DNA of 64,000 nucleotides from Alphaproteobacteria bacterium. Its GTDB lineage: Bacteria > Pseudomonadota > Alphaproteobacteria > UBA828. Where the stretch lies: the NCBI GenBank assembly GCA_965214705.1, contig OZ243972.1, forward strand, positions 1,568,001 through 1,632,000, in the 5' to 3' direction. Of this stretch, positions 18,854 to 33,041 are shown in pieces. A model generated the notes under the pieces. It saw only the letters and a program-made list of their open reading frames with translations. It was not told the origin of the DNA and ran no database searches. The position numbers and the translations under genes were made by a program. How positions within the stretch are numbered: the stretch's first letter is position 1; each line of letters opens with the position of its first letter.

Positions 18854-19930
18854 ATGATCCGTTTCACGCACGGCGACCTCTTCGCCCAGCCCGTCGAGGC
18901 CATCGTCAATCCCGTCAACTGCGTCGGCGTCGCAGGCGCCGGCCTCGCTTTCCAGTTCAAGCGCCGCCACCCCGACGCCTTCCAGGCCTACCGCCGCGCC
19001 TGCGCCGAGGGCCGGCTGCGGCCGGGCCGCATGTTCGTGTTCGACACGGGTCGCGACACGCCCCGGTGGATCGTCCATTTCCCCACCAAGCGTCACTGGC
19101 GCGACCGCAGCGCGATCGGCGACATCGAGACCGGGCTGCGCGGCCTCGCCGCGACCCTTGCCGGCCACGGCATCCGCTCCGTCGCCATCCCGCCACTCGG
19201 GTGCGGCCTGGGCGGTCTCCACTGGCGCGCGGTGCGCCCTCTCATCTCCGCCTGTCTCGCGGACATGCCGGGCACGGTCATCGTTCTCGAGCCGGCGCCG
19301 GAGGCGGAGCCATGCGCAGGGGCGGGCGTCCGCTTACGGGAGGAGAGAGAGACCATGACCCGCGACACCACGAGCATCTTCGACCACGGCGCCACGCTGG
19401 TGCCCGACGTCGTCACCGAGCCCGAGGAGGAGCGCATCCTGCTGCGCATCTCCCAGGCGCCCTGGATGACCGACCTCAGCCGCCGCGTGCAGCATTACGG
19501 GTTCAATTACAACTACCGTGGCCCGACCAACGGCCGGCACGACCCGGCGCCCCCGTTCCCTAGGTGGGCCGAGGTCATCGGGGCCAGACTCGCACCGTAC
19601 TTCGACGGGGCCATGCCCGAGCAGTGCATCGTCAACGAGTACCGGCCCGGCCAGGGCATCGGCATGCACGCCGATCACGCTTCCTTTGGGCCCGTCGTCG
19701 TGTCGCTCTCGCTCGGCGACGCCTGGACGATGAACTTCCGGCCTCGTTCGGCCCGCCCCTACGTCCGCGACGGGCTGGCGTCCGACGAGGTCGCCCGGCT
19801 GCCGCGACGCTCCGCACTCGTCCTGCGAGGACCTGCCAGGAGCGGATGGATGCACGGGATCGATCCCGCCGCCAACACCGGGCGCAGCGAGACCCGAGTC
19901 TCCGCCACGTTCCGGACCCTGGCCGCTTGA
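18854..19930 (+). CDS. Macrodomain (DarG-like) fused to AlkB-family 2OG-Fe(II) dioxygenase
   Basis: GDLF, VNPVNCVGVAGAG, FPTKRHW, PPLGCGLGGL; then VQHYG, NEYRPGQGIGMHAD, WMHGI, RVSATFR. Confidence 0.88.
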   Translation: MIRFTHGDLFAQPVEAIVNPVNCVGVAGAGLAFQFKRRHPDAFQAYRRACAEGRLRPGRMFVFDTGRDTPRWIVHFPTKRHWRDRSAIGDIETGLRGLAATLAGHGIRSVAIPPLGCGLGGLHWRAVRPLISACLADMPGTVIVLEPAPEAEPCAGAGVRLREERETMTRDTTSIFDHGATLVPDVVTEPEEERILLRISQAPWMTDLSRRVQHYGFNYNYRGPTNGRHDPAPPFPRWAEVIGARLAPYFDGAMPEQCIVNEYRPGQGIGMHADHASFGPVVVSLSLGDAWTMNFRPRSARPYVRDGLASDEVARLPRRSALVLRGPARSGWMHGIDPAANTGRSETRVSATFRTLAA

Positions 19931-20636: not shown

Positions 20637-20840
20637 CTGCTGCCTTGCCCGAGACGTCCCCGGACGGACGGCACGGCTCGCGCTGCGCGCGGCGCCCGCC
20701 GCCCCGGCGCCGGCAGGAGCCGGAGAGGGGCCGGGACCCGGGCGTCCCCCCGGCAGCCGCGAGCGAGGTGCTCCCATGCTCTCCGATCCTGTCCGTCGTC
20801 CCGGCTTCGCCGGTACCGTCATGCGCGCCGGAGGCGCGCC

Positions 20841-21020
20841 ATGAACGCCACCGCCGTCGCCGCCGCCCTCGGCGCGCGCGCCGAGGAGGTCTGCCGGCGC
20901 TATCTCCCCCACGGCCGAAAGCACGGCCGCTACTGGACCGCCGGCGACGTTCGCGGCGCCCGCGGGCGATCGCTCTTCGTCCGCCTGGCTCCCCCCGGCG
21001 TCCCCGGCAAGTTCACCGAT
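20841..21020 (+). pseudogene. Toprim/primase-like gene, 5' fragment
   Basis: MNATAVAAALGARAEEVCRRYLP.G...GRYW.AGDV...GKFTD, then breaks at the inserted repeat. Confidence 0.85.
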
Positions 21021-21972
21021 TATGTTGCGCCGGTGGTTATGTTGCGGCCCGGCGCTGGGCGGCGCAGCTGCACGCGCTTTGCGGTTTCTCGGCAACATAA
21101 CCTCAGTCCCGCGGGGAGGGTCGCGTGATGCCGCGCGACGCTTCCGAGCTGGCACGGCGCCTCGCGCGCGACGCCGAGGCGGTCTGCCGCCACTATCTGT
21201 CGAAGGGTCGGCGTCAGGGCCGCTACTGGATGGTGGGCGACGTGCGCAACACGCCCGGCCGGTCGATGTACGTGCGGCTGAGCGGGCCGGAGGCCGGCCC
21301 TGGGGCCGCCGGGCGCTGGAGCGATGCGGCCTCGGCCGAGCACGGCGACCTGCTCGACGTGATCCGCGAGAGCTGCGGGCTCACGGAGTTCCGCGAGGTC
21401 GCCGAGGAGGCGCGGCGCTTCCTGTCGCTGCCCCGGGCCGAACCGCCGGTCGCGTCAAGAGCGCCCGCCCCGAGGGGCTCGGCCGAAGCTGCGCGCAGGC
21501 TCTGGGCGATCGCCAGACCGATCGCCGGCACGCTGGCCGAGGCGTACCTGCGCAACCGCGGGATCGTACATCTGACGAGCTGCGAAGCGCTCCGCTTCCA
21601 TCCGCGCTGCTGGTATCGCCCGGATGGGCATGCGCCGACCGAGACCTGGCCGGCGATGATCGCCGCCGTCACCGACCTCTCGGGCGCGATCACCGGCGTG
21701 CATCGCACCTGGATCGCCCCGGACGGGTTGGGCAAGGCGCCGATCGATACGCCGCGACGCGCGATGGGCGACCTTCTCGGCCATGCCGTCCGGTTCGGTG
21801 CGGCCGGCAACGTCCTCGCCGCCGGCGAAGGCATCGAGACGATGCTGTCGCTGCGATGCGCGCTGCCCGCCATGCCCATGGCGGCGGCGCTCTCGGCGAA
21901 CCACCTCGCCGCCCTCGAACTGGCTGCCGGTCTGCGACGGCTCTACATCGCGCGAGACAACGATCCCGCAGG
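21019..21972 (+). repeat. ~954-bp inverted repeat, left arm (pairs with 25616-26569)
   Basis: Identical translations in several frames on opposite strands; begins ttatgttgcgccggtggttatgttgcgg. Confidence 0.95.
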
Positions 21973-22171
21973 CGATACGGCGGTCGCGGTGCTCACCGAA
22001 CGAGCCGAAGCGGCCGGCATCGAAGCGCTAGCCCTCGCTCCGCGCCTCGGCGACCTCAACGAGGATCTGCAAGCGTTCGACTTGGGCGCCGTCCGCGCAT
22101 TTGTGCGCATCCAACTCGCCCCCGAGGACGCGGTTCGCTTCATGCGCCGGCGGACAGTTGGGACGGGGTGA
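21125..22171 (+). CDS. Toprim-domain primase-like protein (copy 1)
   Basis: GEGIET and DND toprim motifs; EHGDLLD; homologous to the split resident gene. Confidence 0.88.
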   Translation: MMPRDASELARRLARDAEAVCRHYLSKGRRQGRYWMVGDVRNTPGRSMYVRLSGPEAGPGAAGRWSDAASAEHGDLLDVIRESCGLTEFREVAEEARRFLSLPRAEPPVASRAPAPRGSAEAARRLWAIARPIAGTLAEAYLRNRGIVHLTSCEALRFHPRCWYRPDGHAPTETWPAMIAAVTDLSGAITGVHRTWIAPDGLGKAPIDTPRRAMGDLLGHAVRFGAAGNVLAAGEGIETMLSLRCALPAMPMAAALSANHLAALELAAGLRRLYIARDNDPAGDTAVAVLTERAEAAGIEALALAPRLGDLNEDLQAFDLGAVRAFVRIQLAPEDAVRFMRRRTVGTG

Positions 22172-22195
22172 CCGAGGCCGGTGCCCCGTCGCCGC

Positions 22196-23191
22196 TTACA
22201 ACGCCTTCAGGAAGGCCATGAGGTCCTTGTCCTCCTTCCATGACCGAGCGGGTCGCGGCTGGCCCACCTCGCACATCGCGACGGCGTTGGCCTTCAGCGT
22301 CAGGTCGATCTCGGTATAGATGTTGGTCGTGCTGATCGAGACGTGTCCGAGCCAGGCACGGATGGTGTTGATGTCCACATCGGCGAGGGCCAGGTGGCAG
22401 GCCGTGGTGTGCCGGATCACGTGCGGCGTCACCGTCCGATCGGCCAGTTCCGGGACCTGGGCCGCACACCGCTCGATCAGCCGATAGACGCCGAAGCGGG
22501 TGAACGGTGTCCCGAGCCGGCTGACGAACACCGCGTCATCGCCTGCGCGATCGCTGATCTCCTCCGCGAGTACGCGCTCGGTTTCCGGCCATAGCGGGCA
22601 CTGGCGCGTCTTGCCGCCCTTGCCGTGCAAGGTGGCGAGATCGTGCCCGCCTTTCCGCGTTCCGATCTGCAGATCGCATACCCTCAGCTGGATGGCCTCG
22701 GACACTCTTGCGCCGGTGTTGTACAGGAAGAGCATAAGCGCGTACTCGCTCCGGCCCCGCCGGGTCTTGCGGTCGGGCGTCGCCAGCATCGCCTCCATCT
22801 CCGCCCGGGTCAGCCATCCGACCGGCGGCGGCACCGATCTCTTCGACGCGATCGCCCGGATATGACCGCACCATTCGACATGGACCGGGTCGCGGCTGCC
22901 GACGAAGCGCGCGAAGGCCTGGATCGCAGCCAGTCGCTGATTGCGAGTCCGGACGGAGCAACCTCGATCCGTCTCGACATGGGCGAGGAACTCCCGCACG
23001 CATCCGGATGTGATGTCCCATACCGCGAGCCGGTCTACGGGCTTGCGCACCTTTCGGCTGACGAAGGGCAACAACAGGCGGAAGGTGTCGCGGTAGCTCT
23101 TGCGGGTGTTCCTGGCCAGATTGCGTTCGGTGACGATGTGCTCGGTGAAGAACCGGCGGAGCCACGGGCCGAGGGTTGCGGGCTCAGGCAT
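22196..23191 (-). CDS. RIT tyrosine recombinase C
   Basis: RN...NT..SYRDTF.LLL, RNQRLAAI, GARVSE, HVIRH, LGH, IY. Confidence 0.9.
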   Translation of the reverse strand: MPEPATLGPWLRRFFTEHIVTERNLARNTRKSYRDTFRLLLPFVSRKVRKPVDRLAVWDITSGCVREFLAHVETDRGCSVRTRNQRLAAIQAFARFVGSRDPVHVEWCGHIRAIASKRSVPPPVGWLTRAEMEAMLATPDRKTRRGRSEYALMLFLYNTGARVSEAIQLRVCDLQIGTRKGGHDLATLHGKGGKTRQCPLWPETERVLAEEISDRAGDDAVFVSRLGTPFTRFGVYRLIERCAAQVPELADRTVTPHVIRHTTACHLALADVDINTIRAWLGHVSISTTNIYTEIDLTLKANAVAMCEVGQPRPARSWKEDKDLMAFLKAL

Positions 23192-24134
23192 GCCGACCTC
23201 CCGCCGCATAGCGGGCGAACCGTAGCGACGCCTCTTCCAGGAGCTCCGGCGTCATCGACAGATAGATCTTCGTGCCCTCCAGATCGGCGTGACCGAGATA
23301 GGTGGAGAGCACCGGCAGCAGCCGTTGCACATCAGCGCCTTGCCGATACCAGCTCGTCAGGCGGTGGACGGCGAAGCTGTGCCGCAGATCGTGCAGCCGC
23401 GGGATCGTCCGCCCCGCCGCGGGACGGTGGACCCCGGCGAGGCGCCTCAGCGTGTCGAACGCGGCCAGCACCGTGCTACTGGCGAGCCGCGTCCCGTCCC
23501 GGTTCGCCAGGAGCAACGCGTCCCGGCCTTCCACCAGTCCGGCGCGCTGGCGCAGGGTCACGTGGCTTCCCAGAAGCGCTGCAAGCTGAGGGCCGACCGG
23601 GACCAGCCGGCTCTTGTAGAACTTGGTGGCCCGGATGGTCAGGACGGCGTTCGCCAGATCGACGTCGGCAAGGGAGAGGCGAGTCGCCTCCCCGAATCGT
23701 AGGCCCGCGCCGTACAAGAGCAGAAGCAGCGTCCGGAACGTCACCGCGTCCAGCTGGACTGCGCGGCGCCGGCTCGCTTCCACGGTCGCGGGGTCGAACA
23801 GGCGCGCAAGTTCGTCGCGCGAGTAGATGTAGGGCGGCGCTCGGACGGGCGATCTCGGTGCGTCGGCCGGCATCGGTGAGCGGGACGCATGGCCGCGGCT
23901 GATCGCATGGCGCCAGAAGCCGGCAAGCGCATAGTATCTGTTCTCGCAGTGGCGCCTCGACACGCCTTCGCCCGCGAGATACGCCCGTACCTGCCCGGCG
24001 TTGATCGCGTCGCAGGCGGCTTCGCCATCGGCATGGTGAAGGAAGCCGCGCAACAAGCTCGCGCCGCTCGTGAACTTCGCGCCGTGAGCCTGTCGCCAGA
24101 GCACGTAGCGTTCGATCGCTTCTCGCAGGTTCAT
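23184..24134 (-). CDS. RIT tyrosine recombinase B
   Basis: PYIYS, GLRFGE, TKFYKSRLVP, HDLRHSFAV.RL..WY, LSTYLGH. Confidence 0.9.
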   Translation of the reverse strand: MNLREAIERYVLWRQAHGAKFTSGASLLRGFLHHADGEAACDAINAGQVRAYLAGEGVSRRHCENRYYALAGFWRHAISRGHASRSPMPADAPRSPVRAPPYIYSRDELARLFDPATVEASRRRAVQLDAVTFRTLLLLLYGAGLRFGEATRLSLADVDLANAVLTIRATKFYKSRLVPVGPQLAALLGSHVTLRQRAGLVEGRDALLLANRDGTRLASSTVLAAFDTLRRLAGVHRPAAGRTIPRLHDLRHSFAVHRLTSWYRQGADVQRLLPVLSTYLGHADLEGTKIYLSMTPELLEEASLRFARYAAGGRHA

Positions 24135-25378
24135 ACCAGGCCCTCCATGTCGAGAGCCGCTACTTCGCGAAGCGCAGCGAGGTCGACCTTGGCGTAGATG
24201 GTGGTGGAGGTCGGATCTCGGTGCCCGAGGAAGTCGCCGATCACCTTCATCGACGTGCCCCGATCCAGCAGATGCTGGGCTGCGGCATGCCGCAGGGCGT
24301 GAGCCCCGCGTCGCCCGGTGACGACGCCGATGCCAGCCAGCCGATCGCGGACGATCTTGCCCAAGGCCTTCCGGTCGAGCGGTCGGATCGGCGCGCGTGT
24401 TGTCAAGAAGAGACTGCGCCCGAAGCCGGACGGCCGCGCCTCCCTGATGTAGCACAGGATGGCGTGGCCCACGCCCTGCGACAGCGGCCACAGATGAGTG
24501 CGTCCCGGTTTCGGACAGCGGACCCGGAGCATCGCGTTCTCCCAGTCCAGGTCATCGAGCTGCAGCCCGCCGACCTCTGCCGTCCGAAGCCCGTATGCGA
24601 TGAACAGCATCAGGATCGCCCGATCGCGCTTGTCGATGGCCCGGTCGCCCGTAACCGACGCCAGCAAGCGCACGACATCCTCGCGCGGCAGCCCCTTGGG
24701 CACGGCCTCGTCGGCCATGAAGCGGGGCGCCACGATGCCCGCGGCAAGGCCCTCTCGGCACCAGCCGCGCATCTCGGCGAACAGGAAGAACGCTCTCAGC
24801 CGCTGCGCATAATCATGCCGCGTCCGGCGGCTCCAGGCACCCCGCTCATGCTCCGCCGCCATGGCATCGTCGATGTCGGTCATGCCGACCGCGCTCAACT
24901 GCACGCCCTTGGCAGCCAGGTGCAGGAAGAAGTGGTCGGCCGCTTTGCAATAGCTCTGCACGGTCGCATCGGAGAGCCCGTGTTCCTCGCGCGACCATCG
25001 TGCGAAGGCCTGGACCTCGGCGTGATGCGGATGGCGGTCGTCATCGACCTCGTCGAGCCAGCCCAGGAAAGCGAGCCAGCGAACACCGTGGCTGACGAAG
25101 CGGTCGCGCGTCTTCGGTGTTGCGGCTCGGTCGCACCGACGACCTCCGGGCCGCGCCCATATCGTCGCGGCTGCCTCGATCCGCGACCGGTCCACCGGTT
25201 CGCCATCTTCGAGGTTGAGAAGACGCACCAGACTCAGCTGATCGTTGGCGCACTTGCGCAAGGTCGACCGTCTCGCGCCGGTCGCCTTGAGATGAGCGAG
25301 GTATCGCTCCCGCTGCTCCACCAGCGGCGCCTCTCGATACTTGTCGGCGGTGTAGGGGAAGAAGATGTCATCGAACAT
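24131..25378 (-). CDS. RIT tyrosine recombinase A
   Basis: RDRAIL, YGLRTAE, HALRH, LGH, IYAKVD..ALREVA; ggagg RBS. Confidence 0.9.
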   Translation of the reverse strand: MFDDIFFPYTADKYREAPLVEQRERYLAHLKATGARRSTLRKCANDQLSLVRLLNLEDGEPVDRSRIEAAATIWARPGGRRCDRAATPKTRDRFVSHGVRWLAFLGWLDEVDDDRHPHHAEVQAFARWSREEHGLSDATVQSYCKAADHFFLHLAAKGVQLSAVGMTDIDDAMAAEHERGAWSRRTRHDYAQRLRAFFLFAEMRGWCREGLAAGIVAPRFMADEAVPKGLPREDVVRLLASVTGDRAIDKRDRAILMLFIAYGLRTAEVGGLQLDDLDWENAMLRVRCPKPGRTHLWPLSQGVGHAILCYIREARPSGFGRSLFLTTRAPIRPLDRKALGKIVRDRLAGIGVVTGRRGAHALRHAAAQHLLDRGTSMKVIGDFLGHRDPTSTTIYAKVDLAALREVAALDMEGLV

Positions 25379-25434
25379 GTTGGCCTCCTTGTGGTTGGAG
25401 GCGCGAGTTTCCCGACGATGCAGGGTGATGGAAG

Positions 25435-26463
25435 CTATGTTGATCCCACGAGGGGCCTATCGGTCAGCGCGAGTTGGGTATGCAGGCGGCCACTCAGCAC
25501 CTCGACGCCGAGCCGGCGCAGGTCGCCGTTGAAGTCGTCCAGCGCGGGCACGAGCGTCAGCGCCTCGACGCCAGCGCCCCGCGCGCGATCGGCCAGGGTT
25601 CCCGCCGCACGCCGTCCTGCGGGATCGTTGTCTCGCGCGATGTAGAGCCGTCGCAGACCGGCAGCCAGTTCGAGGGCGGCGAGGTGGTTCGCCGAGAGCG
25701 CCGCCGCCATGGGCATGGCGGGCAGCGCGCATCGCAGCGACAGCATCGTCTCGATGCCTTCGCCGGCGGCGAGGACGTTGCCGGCCGCACCGAACCGGAC
25801 GGCATGGCCGAGAAGGTCGCCCATCGCGCGTCGCGGCGTATCGATCGGCGCCTTGCCCAACCCGTCCGGGGCGATCCAGGTGCGATGCACGCCGGTGATC
25901 GCGCCCGAGAGGTCGGTGACGGCGGCGATCATCGCCGGCCAGGTCTCGGTCGGCGCATGCCCATCCGGGCGATACCAGCAGCGCGGATGGAAGCGGAGCG
26001 CTTCGCAGCTCGTCAGATGTACGATCCCGCGGTTGCGCAGGTACGCCTCGGCCAGCGTGCCGGCGATCGGTCTGGCGATCGCCCAGAGCCTGCGCGCAGC
26101 TTCGGCCGAGCCCCTCGGGGCGGGCGCTCTTGACGCGACCGGCGGTTCGGCCCGGGGCAGCGACAGGAAGCGCCGCGCCTCCTCGGCGACCTCGCGGAAC
26201 TCCGTGAGCCCGCAGCTCTCGCGGATCACGTCGAGCAGGTCGCCGTGCTCGGCCGAGGCCGCATCGCTCCAGCGCCCGGCGGCCCCAGGGCCGGCCTCCG
26301 GCCCGCTCAGCCGCACGTACATCGACCGGCCGGGCGTGTTGCGCACGTCGCCCACCATCCAGTAGCGGCCCTGACGCCGACCCTTCGACAGATAGTGGCG
26401 GCAGACCGCCTCGGCGTCGCGCGCGAGGCGCCGTGCCAGCTCGGAAGCGTCGCGCGGCATCAC
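25435..26463 (-). CDS. Toprim-domain primase-like protein (copy 2, alternative C-terminus)
   Basis: Identical to copy 1 up to ...ARDNDPAG, then a diverged but homologous tail. Confidence 0.85.
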   Translation of the reverse strand: MMPRDASELARRLARDAEAVCRHYLSKGRRQGRYWMVGDVRNTPGRSMYVRLSGPEAGPGAAGRWSDAASAEHGDLLDVIRESCGLTEFREVAEEARRFLSLPRAEPPVASRAPAPRGSAEAARRLWAIARPIAGTLAEAYLRNRGIVHLTSCEALRFHPRCWYRPDGHAPTETWPAMIAAVTDLSGAITGVHRTWIAPDGLGKAPIDTPRRAMGDLLGHAVRFGAAGNVLAAGEGIETMLSLRCALPAMPMAAALSANHLAALELAAGLRRLYIARDNDPAGRRAAGTLADRARGAGVEALTLVPALDDFNGDLRRLGVEVLSGRLHTQLALTDRPLVGST

Positions 26464-26569
26464 GCGACCCTCCCCGCGGGACTGAGGTTATGTTGCCGAG
26501 AAACCGCAAAGCGCGTGCAGCTGCGCCGCCCAGCGCCGGGCCGCAACATAACCACCGGCGCAACATAAT
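25616..26569 (-). repeat. ~954-bp inverted repeat, right arm
   Basis: Reverse complement of 21019-21972. Confidence 0.95.
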
Positions 26570-26879
26570 GAATTGGCCTGTATCGGTCGTGCGCAGCAGG
26601 ACCGATACAGGCATTGAGCTGAGCCGCGCTGCACGGCCGTAGTGCCGGGCTATGGGGAAAGTAACCGCTGGGTGGGAGCCGATTAGGCCGAAGCGGTGCA
26701 ACCTGTTGGTGTCGCTGGCGGCGCCGGCACTCTGAATCTCCACTTATCAGGTTGCGACGCGGCTGTGCAGGGGCTCGCGACGATGTTTCGCCGCCGGGCA
26801 GCACGAAGCGGGCGCAGGAGCGGTCGCGGCGCGGCGGCCGGGGGGACTGTTGTCGGACCTTGTCGGTTCTGACGCATCG

Positions 26880-28100
26880 TCACGGCGGTCGGGTATTCGT
26901 CGCCCGCATGGCTGCTTGGGGCTGCGGCTCAAGAATGACGGTTTGCCGCAGCGTTGCCTCGCCGCACTGGCGGCACACGGTGATGTCGATCCCCGTCAGT
27001 CGCAGCATCATCTGCTGCGTCGTTTCCGGCTCCCGCGGTTCAGGGGCAGGCTGGCCGAGCAGGTCTCGGCAGCGGGCGAGCTTGCGAGCCCGGCAGCGAT
27101 TGGCGAGCAAGCCGTAGTGGCGCAGGCGGGTGAAGCCGCGCGGGAGGACGTGCAGGAGGAAGCGGCGGATGAACTCGTCGACGTCGAGACGCATCACCTT
27201 GACCTTGTTGCCGTCAGCGTAGTCGCGCCAACGGAAGCGAACGTGCTCGCCGTCGAAGTCGACGAGGCGATGATTGGCGATGGCAGCCTTGTGGGTGTAG
27301 CGCCCGAGATAGGCCAGAACGTGCCCGGCGCCGGCGAACGGGGCCTTGGTGTAGACCACCCAGTCGTTCGACCGCAGCGCGGTCTTCAGACACTCGAACT
27401 CGCGGCTGTCGTCACCACCGCCGACGACCTTGAGCCGGAGTTCGCCGTCGCGGTGCGCGGCGCCGAGGAAGTCGAGATACTTGCCGCGGAAGACCTTCGA
27501 GAGCGCGACCGTGGGGAACAGGAAGCCCTTGCGCGCGGGAGTGAGCCAGCGCTCTCTGTCCGGGCTCAGACCGCCGTCGGTGACGATACAGTGGACATGG
27601 ATGTGCTGTCCCAGATTCTGCCCCCAAGTGTGCAGCACCATGGTGATGCCGAGCTCGCCGCCGAGCCAGCGGGGATTGCGGCCGAACTCGAGCAGGGTCT
27701 GGGAGGCGGCCTTGAAGAGCAGCCTGTAGATGAGCGCGGTATTGCCCTGGGCCACGGGGTTGAGCTCGTGGGGCAGGGTGAACACGACATGCCAGTAGTC
27801 GATGTCGAGCAGATCGGCGCACTGACGCTCAACCCACCTGGTCTGCGAGAGGGTCTGGCACTTGGGGCAATGACGGTTCCGGCACGAGGCGTACTGGATC
27901 GTCACCGCCCCGCAGTGATCGCATTCTGCCTTGAACCCGCCGAGCACAGCGGTGCGGCAGTTCACCAGCGCGTCGACGACCCTCTGCTGCTGGGCCGAGA
28001 GCAGATGTGTCTCGCCATAGGCGTCGCCGCGCTCGCGCAGGATGTCCGCGACCTCCAGCGCCGGCCGTGTGGCTGGCGCCGCGTGGCCGACATGAGCCAC
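26880..28100 (-). CDS. IS91-family rolling-circle transposase
   Basis: SCRNRHCPKCQ zinc motif, HVVFTLP, LHTWG, HIHVH (HUH), YLGRY (Y2), RHYGLL. Confidence 0.93.
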   Translation of the reverse strand: MAHVGHAAPATRPALEVADILRERGDAYGETHLLSAQQQRVVDALVNCRTAVLGGFKAECDHCGAVTIQYASCRNRHCPKCQTLSQTRWVERQCADLLDIDYWHVVFTLPHELNPVAQGNTALIYRLLFKAASQTLLEFGRNPRWLGGELGITMVLHTWGQNLGQHIHVHCIVTDGGLSPDRERWLTPARKGFLFPTVALSKVFRGKYLDFLGAAHRDGELRLKVVGGGDDSREFECLKTALRSNDWVVYTKAPFAGAGHVLAYLGRYTHKAAIANHRLVDFDGEHVRFRWRDYADGNKVKVMRLDVDEFIRRFLLHVLPRGFTRLRHYGLLANRCRARKLARCRDLLGQPAPEPREPETTQQMMLRLTGIDITVCRQCGEATLRQTVILEPQPQAAMRATNTRPP

Positions 28101-28103
28101 CGG

Positions 28104-28958
28104 TCAGGCCTGGGCAGGACGCGGAAACTCCAGCAGGTCCAGGGGCGACGGCGTGGCGGACGTCTTGTCGTGAGCAAGGTGAAGGTAGCGCATGGTCGAG
28201 CGGATTGAGGTGTGCCCGAGGCGGCGTTGGATGACATGCAGCTCGACGCCGGCCTCGAGGAGCCCGGTGGCGTAGCAATGGCGCAGCGTGTGGATCCCGC
28301 CGGGCTTGGCGATCCCGGCTTTGTCCTTGGCTCGATCGTAAACGTGTGCTGGCCCATGGCGCGTCATCGGCCGGCCGGGAATCCGACCGGGGAACAGCCA
28401 GTGCTCGGGCCGTACCCGCTGCCAGTACTCGCGCAGCTCGTCGAGCAGCCGGGGCGAGAGCGGGACGTAGCGGTCCTTGTTGCCCTTGCCCTGATCGACG
28501 CGCAGGCACATCCGCTGTGAGTCGATATCGCTGATCTGCAACCGGCCGAGCTCGCTCGCCCGAAGCCCCGCTGCATAGGCCGTCATCAGCAAGGCGCGGT
28601 GCTTGCGGTTGATGGTGACGCTGAACAGCCGCACCAGTTCGTCTTGGTTGAGCAGTACGGGCAGGGTGGAAGGCGTCTTGGCGAAGGGCAGATAGAAGTG
28701 CGGCTCGGGCAAGCCCAGCGTGATGCGATAGAGGAAGCGGATCCCTTGGCGAGCGCTGTTGCAGCTCTGCCAAGCCAGCCCCCGCTCTTCGTGAAGAAAG
28801 ATGAGGTACTCCTGGACTTCCTCCGCTGAGATGTGCTCGGGGCTGCGACCGTAGTGAACCGCGAGCCCGGAGACCGAGTTGAGGTAGGACTTCCTGGTGT
28901 TCTCGGCGAAGCCGCGAACCGTCATGTCGTTGATCATGCGCTGGCGAAGTGCCGTCAT
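28104..28958 (-). CDS. Tyrosine recombinase (IS91-associated type)
   Basis: MTALRQRMI.DM, GLRASE, GKGNKDR, HTLRH, LGH, RYLH. Confidence 0.93.
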   Translation of the reverse strand: MTALRQRMINDMTVRGFAENTRKSYLNSVSGLAVHYGRSPEHISAEEVQEYLIFLHEERGLAWQSCNSARQGIRFLYRITLGLPEPHFYLPFAKTPSTLPVLLNQDELVRLFSVTINRKHRALLMTAYAAGLRASELGRLQISDIDSQRMCLRVDQGKGNKDRYVPLSPRLLDELREYWQRVRPEHWLFPGRIPGRPMTRHGPAHVYDRAKDKAGIAKPGGIHTLRHCYATGLLEAGVELHVIQRRLGHTSIRSTMRYLHLAHDKTSATPSPLDLLEFPRPAQA

Positions 28959-29281
28959 GGGGCGTCTCCCTCTGGGTTTGGTCTGTCACGAAGACACGCC
29001 CATGCTCTTGCTCGCCGGCTTGGCGGTCGACGACCATCGATCAACGAGGGAGAAACAGGATTCGACCCTGCGCCCAGACGCTGGAGCGAACGGCCACACT
29101 CAACTTACGCGCGGCAAGGAGATCACTCTGGGCACCCGGCGGCCGAGGCGCCCCGCCGCGGAACGCGGCTCAGTTCAATCGGTCTTATGTGCAGTTGAAC
29201 AGTAAGCGTTACGCAGACCCCATGCCGGAATCTGGGTTGACTACGAGGGGGACTTGTTGAGGAGCGCCGTGAGCGCGCGAG

Positions 29282-30997
29282 TCAATTTGTCTCGGGCTCG
29301 AAGTTCCACGGCAGCAGTTCCTGGATTTTGGACTGCGGGTGACCCTTGGCGATCTTCTCGAGCGTGCTCCGCATCCAGGCGTAAGGCTCGACGCCGTTCA
29401 TCTTGCAGGTCTCGATCAGCGATGCGATGCGGGCCCAGGCTTGCGCACCCTCGTCGTTGCCGGCGAAGAGCGCATTCTTGGCGGTGAGCTTCAGCGGGCG
29501 GATTCGGTTTTCCACCAGGTTCGAGTCGATCTCGACGCGGCCGTCGTGCAGGAACTCCAGCAGCCCGTCCCACTGGTTGGCGATATAGGTGAGCTTCTCG
29601 CCGAGACGCGAGCGCGGTGAGACCCGCGAGCGCTGTTCGTCGAGCCAGACACCGAAGGCGTTCACGATCGGCGCCGACTCCTCCCAGCGGATCGCCTGAC
29701 GCGTCGCCGGCGGCTCGCCCCGGATCTTCTCCTCGATCGCATAGAGCGTCGCGATCCGCTTCAGGCCAGCCAGCGCGATCGGCGAGGCGCTCGAGTCGTA
29801 CACCTCTTTCAGCTTGCGCCTGACGTGCGCCCAGCACAGAGCCCGCGTCACGGGGCCGCCGGGCCGGTCCGGCCGCGCCAGGATGTTGTGGCCCGAGTAG
29901 GCGTCGAGCTGCACCGTCCCCGAAAAGCCCTTCAAGAGCCTGGCGCCATACTTGCCGCCGCGACCGGGCTCATAGCGATAGACAACGCCCGGCGGGTCGG
30001 CGCCGCTCCAGTGGCGCTCGTCGCGCACAAGGGTCCACATGTAGCCCGTCTTCGTCTTGCCCCGGCCCGGGTCGAGAACGCGGATCGTGGTCTCGTCCAG
30101 ACCCAGGTGATCCGACTTCTTCAGCTCATCCTTCAGGCAAGCGACCACGGGGCGCAGGTGAAACGACGCCTGCCCCACCCACGTCGCCAGCGTCGCACGG
30201 TGAACCTCGATCCCCGAGCGCTCGTAAATCTGCGACTGACGGTAGAGCGGGCAATGATCGCCGTACTTCGCGATCAGCACCTGCGCCAGAAGAGCCTCGG
30301 TGGGAAGGCCGCCCTCCACCAGAGAGGCGGGCGCCGACGCCTGCACCACCCCGCCGCCCTTGCACTTGTTGCAGGCGTAGCGGGGGCGCACGGTCTCGAT
30401 GACGGTGAACTTCGCCGGCTCATAGTCCAGCCGCTCGCTGCGGTCCTCGCCGATCTTCGTCATCTCGCCGCAGCCGCAGGGGCACATGATCGTGTCCGGC
30501 TCGATCACCTCCTCGCGCCGGTCGACCTGGGGCCCGAAGCGCACCCCGCTGCGCGACCCCCGGGAAGAGCGCCGCCGGCGCTTGCCGCCAGCCCCCTCGT
30601 CCTGCTCCTGGTCATCTGCCTCGGGCCGACCGCCGGCTTCAGCGATCGCCGCCCAAAACTCCTCGAACGTAAGCTGGCGCTCGTCCTCGTTGAGCTTCTC
30701 GGAGCGCGGACCGAACAGCGCCTTCCTGAGCTCCTTGTTGAGATGCTCAAGCCGGCTGATCTGCTCCGCGCTGTGCGCGTTCTCGGCCTCCAGCCGTGCC
30801 GCCCGCGCTTCCGCCGTCTGCCTCGCCGCCTCCGCCGCGCCGCGTGCCTGCTCCGCTTCGCATAGGGCTGCTTCGGTCGCACGGCGCGCCGCGCGCTCCT
30901 CGGCAAGCTCCGCCTGCAGGGTCGCCAGCGCCGCCGAAACCACCGCAGGCGACGGCGAACCGGCGCTGCTGAGGGGTGAGGGCGTGACCTTCGGCAT
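29282..30997 (-). CDS. tnpC: IS66 transposase TnpC
   Basis: FGPRSE, KYGDHCPLYRQ, DET, CWAHVRR, IETCKMNGVEP. Confidence 0.93.
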   Translation of the reverse strand: MPKVTPSPLSSAGSPSPAVVSAALATLQAELAEERAARRATEAALCEAEQARGAAEAARQTAEARAARLEAENAHSAEQISRLEHLNKELRKALFGPRSEKLNEDERQLTFEEFWAAIAEAGGRPEADDQEQDEGAGGKRRRRSSRGSRSGVRFGPQVDRREEVIEPDTIMCPCGCGEMTKIGEDRSERLDYEPAKFTVIETVRPRYACNKCKGGGVVQASAPASLVEGGLPTEALLAQVLIAKYGDHCPLYRQSQIYERSGIEVHRATLATWVGQASFHLRPVVACLKDELKKSDHLGLDETTIRVLDPGRGKTKTGYMWTLVRDERHWSGADPPGVVYRYEPGRGGKYGARLLKGFSGTVQLDAYSGHNILARPDRPGGPVTRALCWAHVRRKLKEVYDSSASPIALAGLKRIATLYAIEEKIRGEPPATRQAIRWEESAPIVNAFGVWLDEQRSRVSPRSRLGEKLTYIANQWDGLLEFLHDGRVEIDSNLVENRIRPLKLTAKNALFAGNDEGAQAWARIASLIETCKMNGVEPYAWMRSTLEKIAKGHPQSKIQELLPWNFEPETN

Positions 30998-31090
30998 GGC
31001 CGATCCCTTAATCCGATTCGCCAATGCGTGACCAGGGAAAAGTGCAGGCGGGACCTCGACAAAAATCTGCGGACCCGCCTGCGTCTCGCC

Positions 31091-31441
31091 TCACTCCGCC
31101 GCCAGCGGGCGGCGAACCGGGCGGGCCTTCACCCGGCGCCAGTCGAGGCCCTCGAAGAGAGCCTCGAACTGGCCCTTCGTAAGGCGAATCACACCGTCCT
31201 CGATCCGGGGCCAGGCGAAGCGGCCTTGCTCCAGACGCTTGTAGGTCATCACCAGACCGGTCCCGTCCCAGGTGAGAAGCTTGAGCCTGTCCCCGCGGCG
31301 CGAGCGGAAGATCACGATCACCCCGGAATAGATATCGAGGTCCAGCTCCCTCGCCGCCGTCGCCGCAAGCGCGTCGTGGCCGCGACGAAAATCAACCGGA
31401 CGCGTCGCCAACACGATGCGAAGCGAGGGCACCGCGATCAT
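31091..31441 (-). CDS. tnpB: IS66 accessory protein TnpB
   Basis: PVDFRRG, FRSRRGDRLK, WDGTG, KRLEQGRFAWP. Confidence 0.93.
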   Translation of the reverse strand: MIAVPSLRIVLATRPVDFRRGHDALAATAARELDLDIYSGVIVIFRSRRGDRLKLLTWDGTGLVMTYKRLEQGRFAWPRIEDGVIRLTKGQFEALFEGLDWRRVKARPVRRPLAAE

Positions 31442-32040
31442 GACGACGCACGACCCAGGCCCGAGGCCACAGCCACGATCCGATCGACCGCGCTCTCCAC
31501 CGGAAGGCGAACGACGACGCCCAGCGCCTCAATCGCGACCGTCCGCTCGGACGCAGACCCGTCAACTACAACCGGAATATAGGGGGGCGAAGACCCGGCT
31601 CCCTGCCGATCGCCACCAGCGTCACTCGCCGCCTGGCGACGCCAGGTGCGCAGCGTCTTCTCGCTGATGCCGTGACGGCGGGCAACTGCCGATATCGATG
31701 CATCCGGGCGCTCGCTCTCCGCAACAATCCGCGCCTTCACATCAGCCGGCCAAGGCCGGCCACGCCGCTTCCCGGAAGCCGCTGACCGACTGCGCCACTG
31801 ACGAAGAGTTTGTGCGCTGATGCCGTGGCGAGCCGCGACCTCCTTCTGCACAACTCCCGGCCTGTCGCTCTCCGCGACGATCCGTGCCTTCTCCTCGGCG
31901 GACCATGACCGCCGAGTGTGATCAGCCGGAACAGTTGCCGTAGATGGGGCTGCGGCAGATGGGGCGGCCTCTTCAGGCGCTCGCGCCTCGACCGAGTGAC
32001 CGCCGAACTCGTGGCCACGCAGAAAATCCAAATCCTTCAT
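31438..32040 (-). CDS. tnpA: IS66 TnpA with two tandem HTH modules
   Basis: Two copies of W...KARIVAES..P....VA.RHGIS..TLR.WR. Confidence 0.85.
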   Translation of the reverse strand: MKDLDFLRGHEFGGHSVEARAPEEAAPSAAAPSTATVPADHTRRSWSAEEKARIVAESDRPGVVQKEVAARHGISAQTLRQWRSRSAASGKRRGRPWPADVKARIVAESERPDASISAVARRHGISEKTLRTWRRQAASDAGGDRQGAGSSPPYIPVVVDGSASERTVAIEALGVVVRLPVESAVDRIVAVASGLGRASS

Positions 32041-32142
32041 CGCGATGCCTCCTCCAAGGCTCCTTGCCAAGGCCAAGAGTCAGCCGCGAAATCAGATGCG
32101 TTGGAAGTATGGGGCCTCGATACCGCTTACGTTGAACATAAG

Positions 32143-32985
32143 ACGGATGCGGCCACCGGCGAGCACGGCGACCTGCTCGACCTCATCCGCATCGCCACCG
32201 GCGCGGGCTCGCTCCTCGCCGCCCTCGCCGAGGCGCGCGCCTTCCTCTCGCTCCCGCCCGCGACCGCCACCGATGGCGGCTCCGACTCCTACGACCGCAC
32301 GGAAGCGGCGCGCCGCCTGTGGCAGCGCTGCCGCGCCATCGACGGCACCCATGCCGAGGCCTATCTGCGCGCCAGAGCGATCCACCGCTGCCGCTTCCCG
32401 GCGCTTCGCTACCACCCCGCGCTCTTCTACCGCGACGGCGGCGGCATACGCCGCCTGCCGGCGCTGGTCGCCGCCGTCACCGGCGCCGCGGGGGAACACC
32501 CCGGTCACGGGTCCGTTACCGGCGTCCACCGCACCTGGCTCGATCCCTCGCGCCCGGCCAAGGCGCCCGTGGCGCGCCCGCGCAAGGCGCTCGGCCGCGT
32601 CCACGGGCTGGCCGTGCGCTTCGGCAGCCCGGCGCCGACCACGCTGCTGGTGGGCGAGGGGATCGAGACGGTGCTGTCGCTGGTCACGGCGATGCCGGAC
32701 ACCGTGGCCGCCGCCGCGCTTTCCGCCGGCAGCCTCGGCGCGTTCGCGCCTCCGCCCGGCACAGCCCGGCTCGTCATCGCCCGCGACAACGACCCCGAAG
32801 GCGAGCGGGCGGCGGAACGCCTCGCCCGCCGCTGCGCGCAGGCGGGCGTCCCCGTCCATGTCCTCGTTCCCGAGGGCGAGGACTTCAACGACGACCTGCT
32901 CGCGCTCGGCTCCGCTGCGCTCGCTGCGCGCGTCGCGCCCCTCTTCCGCTTCGCGGGAGAGAGAGGGGAGCGGGAGTCGGTGTGA
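32143..32985 (+). pseudogene. Toprim/primase-like gene, 3' fragment
   Basis: TDAATGEHGDLLD continues GKFTD from 21020; GEGIET, DND, DFN. Confidence 0.85.
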
Positions 32986-33041
32986 ACAAGGCGGGGGAGG
33001 AGAGAGAGAACCCGCCCGCCAGGCACGAAGGGAGCACCCGG

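Follow-up and report, generated by a model that had tools for sequence, protein, structure and literature searches.

RIT elements, which carry a trio of tyrosine recombinase genes, are common in bacterial genomes and plasmids, and to our knowledge nobody has reproduced their movement. As worded in sections of PMC3414803, they are defined by overlaps of 4-8 bp between three reading frames in the order ritA-ritB-ritC; passages of PMC8138268 separate three Rit subfamilies, with an additional core-binding domain at the N-terminus of RitA and an additional helix at the C-terminus of RitC; and Table 1 of a 2023 comparison (PMC10214605) lists RIT target specificity and movement as "not tested". Here, we analyze a RIT element in a stretch of 64,000 nucleotides from an alphaproteobacterial genome (contig OZ243972.1, positions 1,568,001 to 1,632,000 of the forward strand), referred to below as the window, in whose numbering its features are given. 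In this element, ritA-ritB-ritC is located between two inward-facing toprim genes of the DnaG fold, and we consider it likely that the element is one copy of a widespread RIT lineage that homes into the DnaG-like toprim gene of alphaproteobacterial conjugative elements and carries its own copies of that gene.

Several described systems resemble this locus in part. Tn916-type elements carry along an adjacent 6-bp stretch, the coupling sequence. Lambdoid phage 21 and e14, which enter icd, and the integrators into tRNA genes supply coding sequence of the gene that they interrupt. The R64 shufflon recombinase Rci and the hsdS inversions provide examples of tyrosine recombinases acting on inverted recombination sites that flank a segment. 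The gene-rebuilding integrators are similar to the element studied here in that insertion is made harmless by supplied coding sequence, but they fuse a duplicate 3' end in frame, whereas the RIT toprim element has a whole diverged gene at either end that is stop/start-coupled to the discarded 5' fragment. In contrast to invertible switches and shufflons, the segment here is a transposon, and its inversion is suggested solely by the finding of both orientations. Tn554 and the strand-biased circularizing elements (SEs), transposons that use several tyrosine recombinases, share, as portrayed in parts of PMC10214605, site-specific tyrosine-recombinase insertion with a 6-bp stretch travelling from the donor to the new site; together with the Tn916-type elements they differ in their recombinase families and gene sets, and none of them is known to combine its insertion with a palindrome outside the element, with long repeats paired symmetrically, or with a replacement copy of the target gene. 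Also among the similar systems are the canonical RITs, for which passages of PMC3414803 depict the same overlapping ritA-ritB-ritC genes, motif-built terminal repeats, and several identical copies per genome. Those elements measure 3.4-3.7 kb and contain the trio only, whereas the toprim lineage has two full toprim genes between the repeats and the trio, a protein-coding target homologous to the cargo, and a cargo start locked to the target frame. The literature searched contained no report linking RITs to toprim genes; the main RIT survey (Ricker et al. 2013) is outside that coverage and may bear on the novelty of the palindrome and the accessory genes.

Structure of the element and its toprim genes

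The RIT element proper occupies positions 21020-26568 (∼5.55 kb), in the order terminal repeat, toprim gene A (rightward), ritC, ritB, and ritA (leftward), toprim gene B (leftward), and terminal repeat. It follows the 5' fragment of a resident toprim gene (20841-21019, plus strand; 59 codons and the first two bases of the Asp codon of GKFTD), the reading of which breaks after GKFTD at 21018-21020. The three recombinase genes are on the minus strand (ritC, 22196-23209; ritB, 23184-24137; ritA, 24131-25378), and each product matches the Phage_integrase domain (E values of 6e-21 to 2.7e-28), the ritB match being recorded for 23184-24491. The start of ritB overlaps the stop of ritA by ATGA, and the likely start of ritC at 23191 overlaps the stop of ritB by ATGCCTGA, an overlap that holds if the second ATG is the ritC start. 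The lengths of RitA, RitB, and RitC (415, 317, and 337 aa) fit the RIT subfamilies, with RitA showing a long N-terminal extension in which ∼120 residues precede its SAM-like domain. Scanning the recombinases against NCBIfam returned only Xer-type matches below the cut-off; the libraries scanned do not include Rit-specific models.

The two ends of the element form a perfect inverted repeat of 954 nt (21019-21972 and 25616-26569) that is 100% complementary and encloses 3643 nt. The left arm contains one flank base, the terminal repeat, and codons 1 to ∼282 of toprim gene A, and the final base of the right arm (T at 26569) is the first base of O', the inverted one of the 6-bp crossover copies (O and O') beside the element. 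The outermost base pair of the repeat is part of these 6-bp flanks, so that the perfect repeat of the element itself is 953 nt and the element proper is bounded at 21020 and 26568. The left 106 nt are noncoding; they begin with TTATGTTGCG, show this motif again 17 nt later, and contain the inverted form GCAACATAAC ∼75 nt in. In motif design, the outer ∼88 bp of each arm matches the 86-92-bp terminal repeats of six other RIT copies in this genome (three families, ∼3.7 kb, devoid of a toprim gene), in which a 10-nt motif occurs in two direct copies and one inverted copy; at two further trios of the genome, a terminal repeat was looked for and not found. Because the arm ends share this design, we assign the canonical RIT terminal inverted repeat on the left to 21020-21106 (plus strand; two direct TTATGTTGCG and one inverted GCAACATAAC), throughout which the target frame is open. 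Outside the terminal repeat, the 6-bp inverted crossover copy and a 20-bp palindrome also belong to the element.

These features confirm a preliminary description of the locus, made from the letters of the stretch, which had noted a RIT element that opens with motif repeats and continues with a full-length toprim homologue, the trio, and an inverted copy of the first ∼282 codons of that homologue with a different but homologous C-terminus. Assignment to the RITs is borne out by the three same-strand tyrosine recombinase genes, the ATGA and ATGCCTGA overlaps, and the canonical repeat design in the arms. Its inverted repeat of about 954 bp is real and perfect, but is not the terminal repeat as such; rather, a canonical repeat of ∼88-109 bp has been extended by conversion. 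Its right boundary at 26569 likewise needs to be moved outward to include the crossover copy and the palindrome.

Comparison with relatives in other genomes (described below) suggests how the long repeat arose. The perfect outer repeat is 953 nt here compared to 600, 550, ∼420, ∼280, 119, and 10-14 nt in relatives, where the remaining arm sequence is 82-87% identical. Since the perfect stretch varies in length and the rest has diverged to this extent, toprim genes A and B appear to be old paralogues that are homogenized from the ends inward, and we infer from these sequence comparisons that the 954-bp repeat is a recent gene-conversion tract between them, the longest among the loci compared.

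Toprim gene A (21125-22171, plus strand; 348 aa, DUF7146 and Toprim_3 domains) has its ATG at 21128, 19 bp inward of the canonical terminal repeat, with GGAGG located 8 nt upstream. Toprim gene B (25435-26463, minus strand; 342 aa) reads in the same direction as ritABC and is 56 bp upstream of ritA. The two genes share ∼282 identical codons followed by different but homologous C-termini, with the C-terminal 60 residues of B differing from those of A (89% identity overall). Both match Toprim_3 (E values of 8e-21 and 3e-21), GEGIET and DxD are invariant, and E235, D278, and D280 are retained in 18 of 18 aligned sequences. Ratios of nonsynonymous to synonymous substitution (dN/dS) of 0.16-0.34 for 14 pairs of element A and B copies indicate that both element copies are under purifying selection. 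The proteins of the element belong to a lineage of their own that is characterized by a 4-residue insertion and by G(H/R)W(T/S)D in 39 of 39 copies, versus GK(W/F)TD in the residents.

A structural model of the toprim protein (mean predicted local distance difference test score of 84.1) gave Aquifex primase 2au3 as its best fold match (E value of 1.4e-9), and all 39 matches in the Protein Data Bank (PDB) with E ≤ 0.001 were DnaG, T7 gp4, T4 gp61, or Twinkle primases, at template modelling scores of only 0.3-0.46. Residues 1-100 of the model form a small strand-and-helix domain. No solved chain in the PDB matched the toprim protein by sequence, no NCBIfam family for it exceeded the cut-off, and the Pfam zinc-ribbon did not match it. 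The earlier term "primase homologue" finds its support in the predicted DnaG-type fold, and a primase identity is suggested at that level only.

Target site, relatives, and junctions

The host genome surveyed comprises 7.9 Mb in three contigs and contains eight element ends that are 99.9-100% identical and have differing flanks. Four ends adjoin four different toprim 5' fragments, each cut at the same GK(W/F)TD codon (...ACCG followed directly by ATTATGTTG), another adjoins a look-alike site (GGGGAGTGGATCG followed by ATTATG), and three adjoin IS91-type elements. The four matching 3' remainders open with AAG ACSGAY GCG. Insertion occurs after ...GGC AAR T(GG/TC) ACC GA of the target, within the target site GGCAARTGGACCGA. 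The GK(W/F)TD codon pattern is found at 19 sites in the genome, of which 4 are occupied, 14 are read through intact in toprim paralogues, and 1 is otherwise damaged. At least five insertion events in this genome are implied, and the presence of near-identical copies at different sites indicates that the element moves as a unit. Two half-copies (C1:9380-12237 and C3:2310570-2313269, given as contig and positions) both adjoin toprim 5' fragments, and we read them as a later rearrangement between element copies. In all, the genome possesses ∼20 toprim paralogues (36 tblastn matches), apparently one for each conjugative backbone.

A RitA search of 44 genomes of the host family detected the clade in seven, all from one genus, and a RitA scan using one genome per species yielded 73 loci (RitA 46-97% identical; numbered with L) in Xanthobacter, Hansschlegelia, Rhodopila, Rhodoplanes, Mesorhizobium, Bradyrhizobium, Reyranella, Acidocella, and other genera. 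The preliminary description had suggested seeking the trio elsewhere and examining it for linked toprim genes. Inward-pointing toprim sequence is present beside the trio on at least one side in 51 of the 73 loci and on both sides in 29; in many of the other 22, the contig runs out less than 200 bp from the trio. In 32 loci, pieces of an interrupted toprim gene are located outside the element, with both halves in 10, and the complete unit measures 5549-5729 bp in 10 loci. The order is again the same in finished plasmids (e.g., NZ_CP051294.1), where the annotation gives three tyrosine recombinases and two proteins with a toprim domain. Distant members (L080, L096, L103, and L104) retain C-terminal toprim relics only.

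A close relative in genome G027 provides an insertion free of insertion sequences (IS); its trio is 97% identical and is inserted at the same toprim codon. Its junctions, with slashes marking boundaries, read ...AAGTG GACCGA / TTATGTTGCG ... CGCAACATAA / TCGGTC / TTATGTTCAACTGCACATAA / GACCGA / T TCA GCA..., and its terminal repeat is only 109 bp. On the left, the last 16 codons of gene A come right after the repeat, and on the right MPRDASEL is joined in frame to the last 70 codons of gene B. Because relics of both toprim genes remain, the toprim-bearing form is ancestral and the G027 copy a double-deletion derivative. A gene for single-stranded DNA-binding protein (SSB) upstream of the target was considered as a general context and rejected, as it was observed only in G027 and L110 (the G037 locus, where a RIT is in a macro/AlkB gene); elsewhere the target follows a strawberry-notch-like helicase gene, as on Mesorhizobium plasmid NZ_CP051294.1.

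Some copies depart from the simple arrangement. Toprim 5' fragments are present at both ends in L045, L048, L072, C1:12237, and C3:2313269, and L098 has two palindromes; such double-5'-fragment and double-palindrome copies probably derive from recombination between inverted copies. An 8.9-kb copy on Aminobacter plasmid NZ_CP015007.1 (140658-149537; H1) has SLC13 permease and potassium-channel genes under the match, showing that the element can take up extra cargo.

All 19 remainder-side junctions found by pattern (L034 and L042 being the same contig) contain a palindrome of 20 bp with a 6-bp stretch on either side. Among the plain ends of other genomes, 29 of 30 adjoin a toprim 5' fragment, with no palindrome, and the 30th is at a contig start; taken with the four paralogues cut at the same codon in the host genome, these ends indicate that the element interrupts toprim genes specifically. 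The 6-bp stretch on the 5' side of the target is the target's own. The two stretches beside the palindrome are mutually inverted, are identical in 11 of the 19 junctions, and are often one base off that of the target; because of this frequent difference, the palindrome and its flanking 6-mers are considered to travel with the element. In each of the 19 junctions the palindrome is toward the 3' part of the target, and it adjoins either the ritA-side end (10 loci) or the ritC-side end (8 loci), with L098 being exceptional in having it at both ends. Both orientations of the trio relative to the target were found, among the near-identical copies of the host genome and among the relatives, in keeping with the inversion of the trio that the preliminary description had allowed for. 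The 8-bp centre of the palindrome also occurs in both orientations, roughly 10 to 8. A coupling of palindrome centre to trio orientation, as in a single-strand panhandle model, was rejected since both centres occur with either end.

The same outer arrangement was observed in every RIT family examined: 6-8 bp, the element, the inverted 6-8 bp, a palindrome of 16-22 bp, and the 6-8 bp again, with the palindrome of each family consisting of two copies of that family's own repeat motif (C1:2621546-2625241, C1:2694368-2698106, and C1:4091054-4094757; L035-L040; L114-L123). This shared outer architecture may be a general and mechanistically telling feature of RITs. Other RIT lineages also are located at fixed codons, in genes that are conserved on mobile elements, and have no replacement gene; they follow PPFPRWA in a macro/2-oxoglutarate (2OG)-oxygenase gene or PLYR in an IS66 transposase gene, and three copies of one family follow NLVDKAKQLGIPVMH (L035 at ∼8115 and ∼11527, L036 at ∼11468, C1:2694368, C1:4048663, and C1:4089397).

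The junctions can be accommodated by a model in which RitABC would carry out conservative site-specific recombination across the 6-bp region. The likely intermediate would be a circle with the palindrome between both terminal repeats, providing two inverted crossover sites. Integration via either site, or inversion between the sites, could yield all the observed combinations while always placing the palindrome toward the 3' part of the target, and an empty target site would read GGCAAGTTCACCGATGCG. We offer only tentatively the extension that RITs generally, including the toprim lineage, use this two-site palindromic junction (O, body, O', palindrome, O), that integration or inversion flips the body and the 8-bp centre of the palindrome, and that the flip acts as a switch in the toprim lineage. 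With the A end at the target promoter, toprim A would be made and transcription would run antisense to ritABC (off); in the opposite arrangement, with the B end at the promoter, one transcript would cover both toprim B and ritABC (on), and the C-terminus of the expressed toprim protein would change. The palindromic junction might, in turn, be hunted by elements that combine IS91-type and integrase genes.

Proposed replacement of the interrupted gene and competing explanations

The ends of the element are arranged in a manner that suggests a use for its toprim genes. At 23 of 27 5'-side junctions (the window and 21 loci, with L045 contributing both of its ends), the frame of the interrupted target is open through the repeat and stops at the TGA of a GTGATG that overlaps the ATG of the element toprim gene, which is preceded by GGAGG; in the window, the TGA of the truncated frame is at 21126-21128 and the ATG of toprim gene A is at 21128 (plus strand). 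The coupled frames span 39-41 codons in three length classes, all in frame, and the four exceptions comprise the G027-type deletion (three junctions) and a deletion in L048. As both ends are built alike, a full toprim gene is situated behind the target promoter in either orientation. Whichever end meets the promoter and 5' part of the target, read-through transcription and coupled translation would yield a complete toprim protein. With this element-supplied protein the host conjugative element would keep its toprim function, and insertion would be cheap; two toprim copies would be needed as the element can sit, or flip, either way. On the basis of these sequence features, the element probably repairs the damage of its own insertion. 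The target complementation put forward in the preliminary description therefore gains support from the design at 23 of the 27 junctions, the dN/dS values, and the invariant Glu and DxD residues, which make it plausible; as an obligatory function it does not stand, because toprim-less derivatives persist at the target. A changed crossover that would render the element's own toprim genes immune was considered and rejected, as 28 of 40 motif matches (39 element-borne and one in a target 5' fragment) read TGGACCGATG, which keeps GACCGA; only the preceding Lys codon differs from the target site in these copies.

Several observations weigh against this picture of a homing lineage that replaces the gene it interrupts. 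Toprim-less derivatives are still inside toprim genes (G027, L071, and L072), so complementation is not obligatory. An open frame of 40 codons is not rare in DNA this rich in G and C, and the features that count as evidence are therefore limited to the fixed end point and the in-frame length classes. The element and resident toprim proteins are only 48-53% identical in this genome, and no evident counterpart of the zinc-binding motif found in true DnaG primases was seen (C21 and H73 are the only invariant Cys/His within residues 1-80). The loci are related to one another, and hence their counts overstate the number of independent events. Pattern searches of the genome and all relative loci gave no match to a circle junction (the palindrome with terminal repeats on both sides) and none to an empty, palindrome-only site; the sequencing-run contigs over 20800-33000 break at the repeat and cannot tell orientation or inversion. 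In metagenome contigs, the circle-junction pattern gave 10 matches, all from other RIT families (RitB and RitC 45-51% identical where seen); 4 of these contigs fold back perfectly to the contig end, a possible assembler artefact, and 6 have arms that diverge after 6-40 nt, and we do not count these ambiguous contigs as support.

The toprim genes might instead serve the element itself, for example by priming a single-stranded or circular intermediate, with the choice of a toprim target being a separate matter (e.g., a safe conserved site) and with no complementation involved. Such a function would account for the purifying selection on both copies and for the separate lineage that the element toprims form, and it would suit the hairpin or protected RIT intermediates proposed in a portion of PMC5737581; we nevertheless consider it unlikely, since canonical RITs, here and in relatives, move as identical 3.4-3.7-kb copies that have no toprim gene, and toprim-less derivatives of the same lineage persist at the same target. 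Self-service also leaves unexplained why the start codon is locked to the target frame at both ends and why the target is a homologue of the cargo. That homology would follow readily if the toprims were passengers without a role, caught by chance from earlier targets, with the long repeat as a recent duplication, and the existence of deletion derivatives and of the four distant members with C-terminal relics points the same way. Passengers, however, would not be expected to remain as full-length genes with invariant catalytic residues and dN/dS values of 0.16-0.34 where RitA is only 72-88% identical, or in units of 5549-5729 bp in 10 loci, and the toprim start is 19 bp inward of the repeat rather than at the target break, which argues that the genes are not target remnants. 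This explanation we regard as very improbable.

An assembly error in the second arm, a refutation foreseen in the preliminary description, or in the arrangement as a whole is a concern because perfect long inverted repeats are a classic source of misassembly, and short-read contigs do break at the repeat, at matching residues on both sides (e.g., 122/122, 92/92, and 40/40). The probability of this is nonetheless negligible. At least four copies in the genome have different flanks, and the same order recurs in the 29 loci where both sides can be seen and in records of finished plasmids. Moreover, the repeat is a single 956-bp contig in two runs of two studies, with depths of 39.8 and 17.1 versus 14.9-17.9 and 6.99 for the centre, a ratio of ∼2.2-2.7 that supports the presence of two arms. 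We thus return to the reading of an element that homes into toprim genes and supplies a replacement as the one that best accommodates the junctions.

Later insertions in the window and implications

The right side of the element in the window has been obscured by two later insertions. On the left, the crossover copy O (CACCGA, 21014-21019, plus strand) comprises the last six bases of the resident 5' fragment. On the right, an IS91-family element (26570-29179, minus strand; Y2 transposase, 26880-28100; integrase, 28104-28958) is inside O', between the RIT end and the palindrome; a contig of metagenome run X3 joins 26566 to 29177 and represents the IS91-free form. Next come the remainder of O' (CGGTC, 29180-29184) and the palindrome TTATGTGCAGTTGAACATAA up to its 17th base (29180-29201 in total, plus strand), and then an IS66-family element (29202-32130, minus strand) with the second copy of the 8-bp target duplication GTTGAACA at 32131-32138. 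The palindrome is completed by its final three bases, TAA, which together with the right crossover copy O (GACGGA) occupy 32139-32147 (plus strand), and the 3' remainder of the resident toprim gene is at 32148-32985 (plus strand), where with the preceding O it reads (K)TDAATGEHGDLLD.... When both IS elements are removed, the right junction becomes ...CGCAACATAA / TCGGTC / TTATGTGCAGTTGAACATAA / GACGGA / TGCGGCC.... The claim that the element interrupts a resident toprim gene is thereby confirmed, with the gene broken at GKFTD and its 3' part surviving downstream (32142-32985 including O), displaced by the IS91-type and IS66 elements and overlooked in the preliminary description.

The surrounding conjugative backbone in the window encodes a strawberry-notch-like helicase, RadC, a macro/2OG-oxygenase fusion, SSB, a TrwC relaxase, and a coupling protein. 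The fusion of a macro domain to a 2OG-Fe(II) oxygenase (AlkB-like; 18854-19930), upstream of ssb, is the target of another RIT lineage in G037. The IS66 element with GTTGAACA inside the RIT palindrome has the same IS66-in-palindrome junction at C1:∼4100, and by this shared junction the two loci are linked by duplication or recombination. The IS91-family element of 2610 bp (Y2 transposase and tyrosine integrase) is located exactly between the RIT end and its palindrome, and, of 11 copies examined, 9 have a left end preceded by the ...ACRTA(A/G)T of either a RIT end or a palindrome of the RIT type (copies include C1:1986296, C1:3503379, C1:4094884, C2:498018, C2:576240, C3:317034, C3:1790899, and others; L124, 1354-3995). 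A differently sequenced pair of IS91-type and integrase genes occupies the same spot between RIT end and palindrome on the Mesorhizobium plasmid, and the IS91-plus-integrase element looks like one that hunts RIT junctions. A second IS91-like element, which also has an integrase, reaches a copy number on the order of one hundred in the genome, and several RIT copies have been split or shuffled by such elements.

The toprim RIT lineage amounts to a natural experiment, with dozens of independent insertions into a known and alignable target. These insertions delimit a candidate attachment site (∼14 bp) and a crossover region (6 bp) and reveal an insertion polarity and a previously unremarked companion palindrome, and they give a concrete, testable picture of how a RIT chooses and enters its target. 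The element also explains why short-read assemblies break at this region in many alphaproteobacterial plasmids. For the biology of these elements, the lineage is a clear example of how a transposon appears to compensate for its insertion by supplying a working copy of the gene it destroys, and to do so symmetrically, in either orientation, which would constitute a strategy for residing in other mobile elements while leaving them functional.

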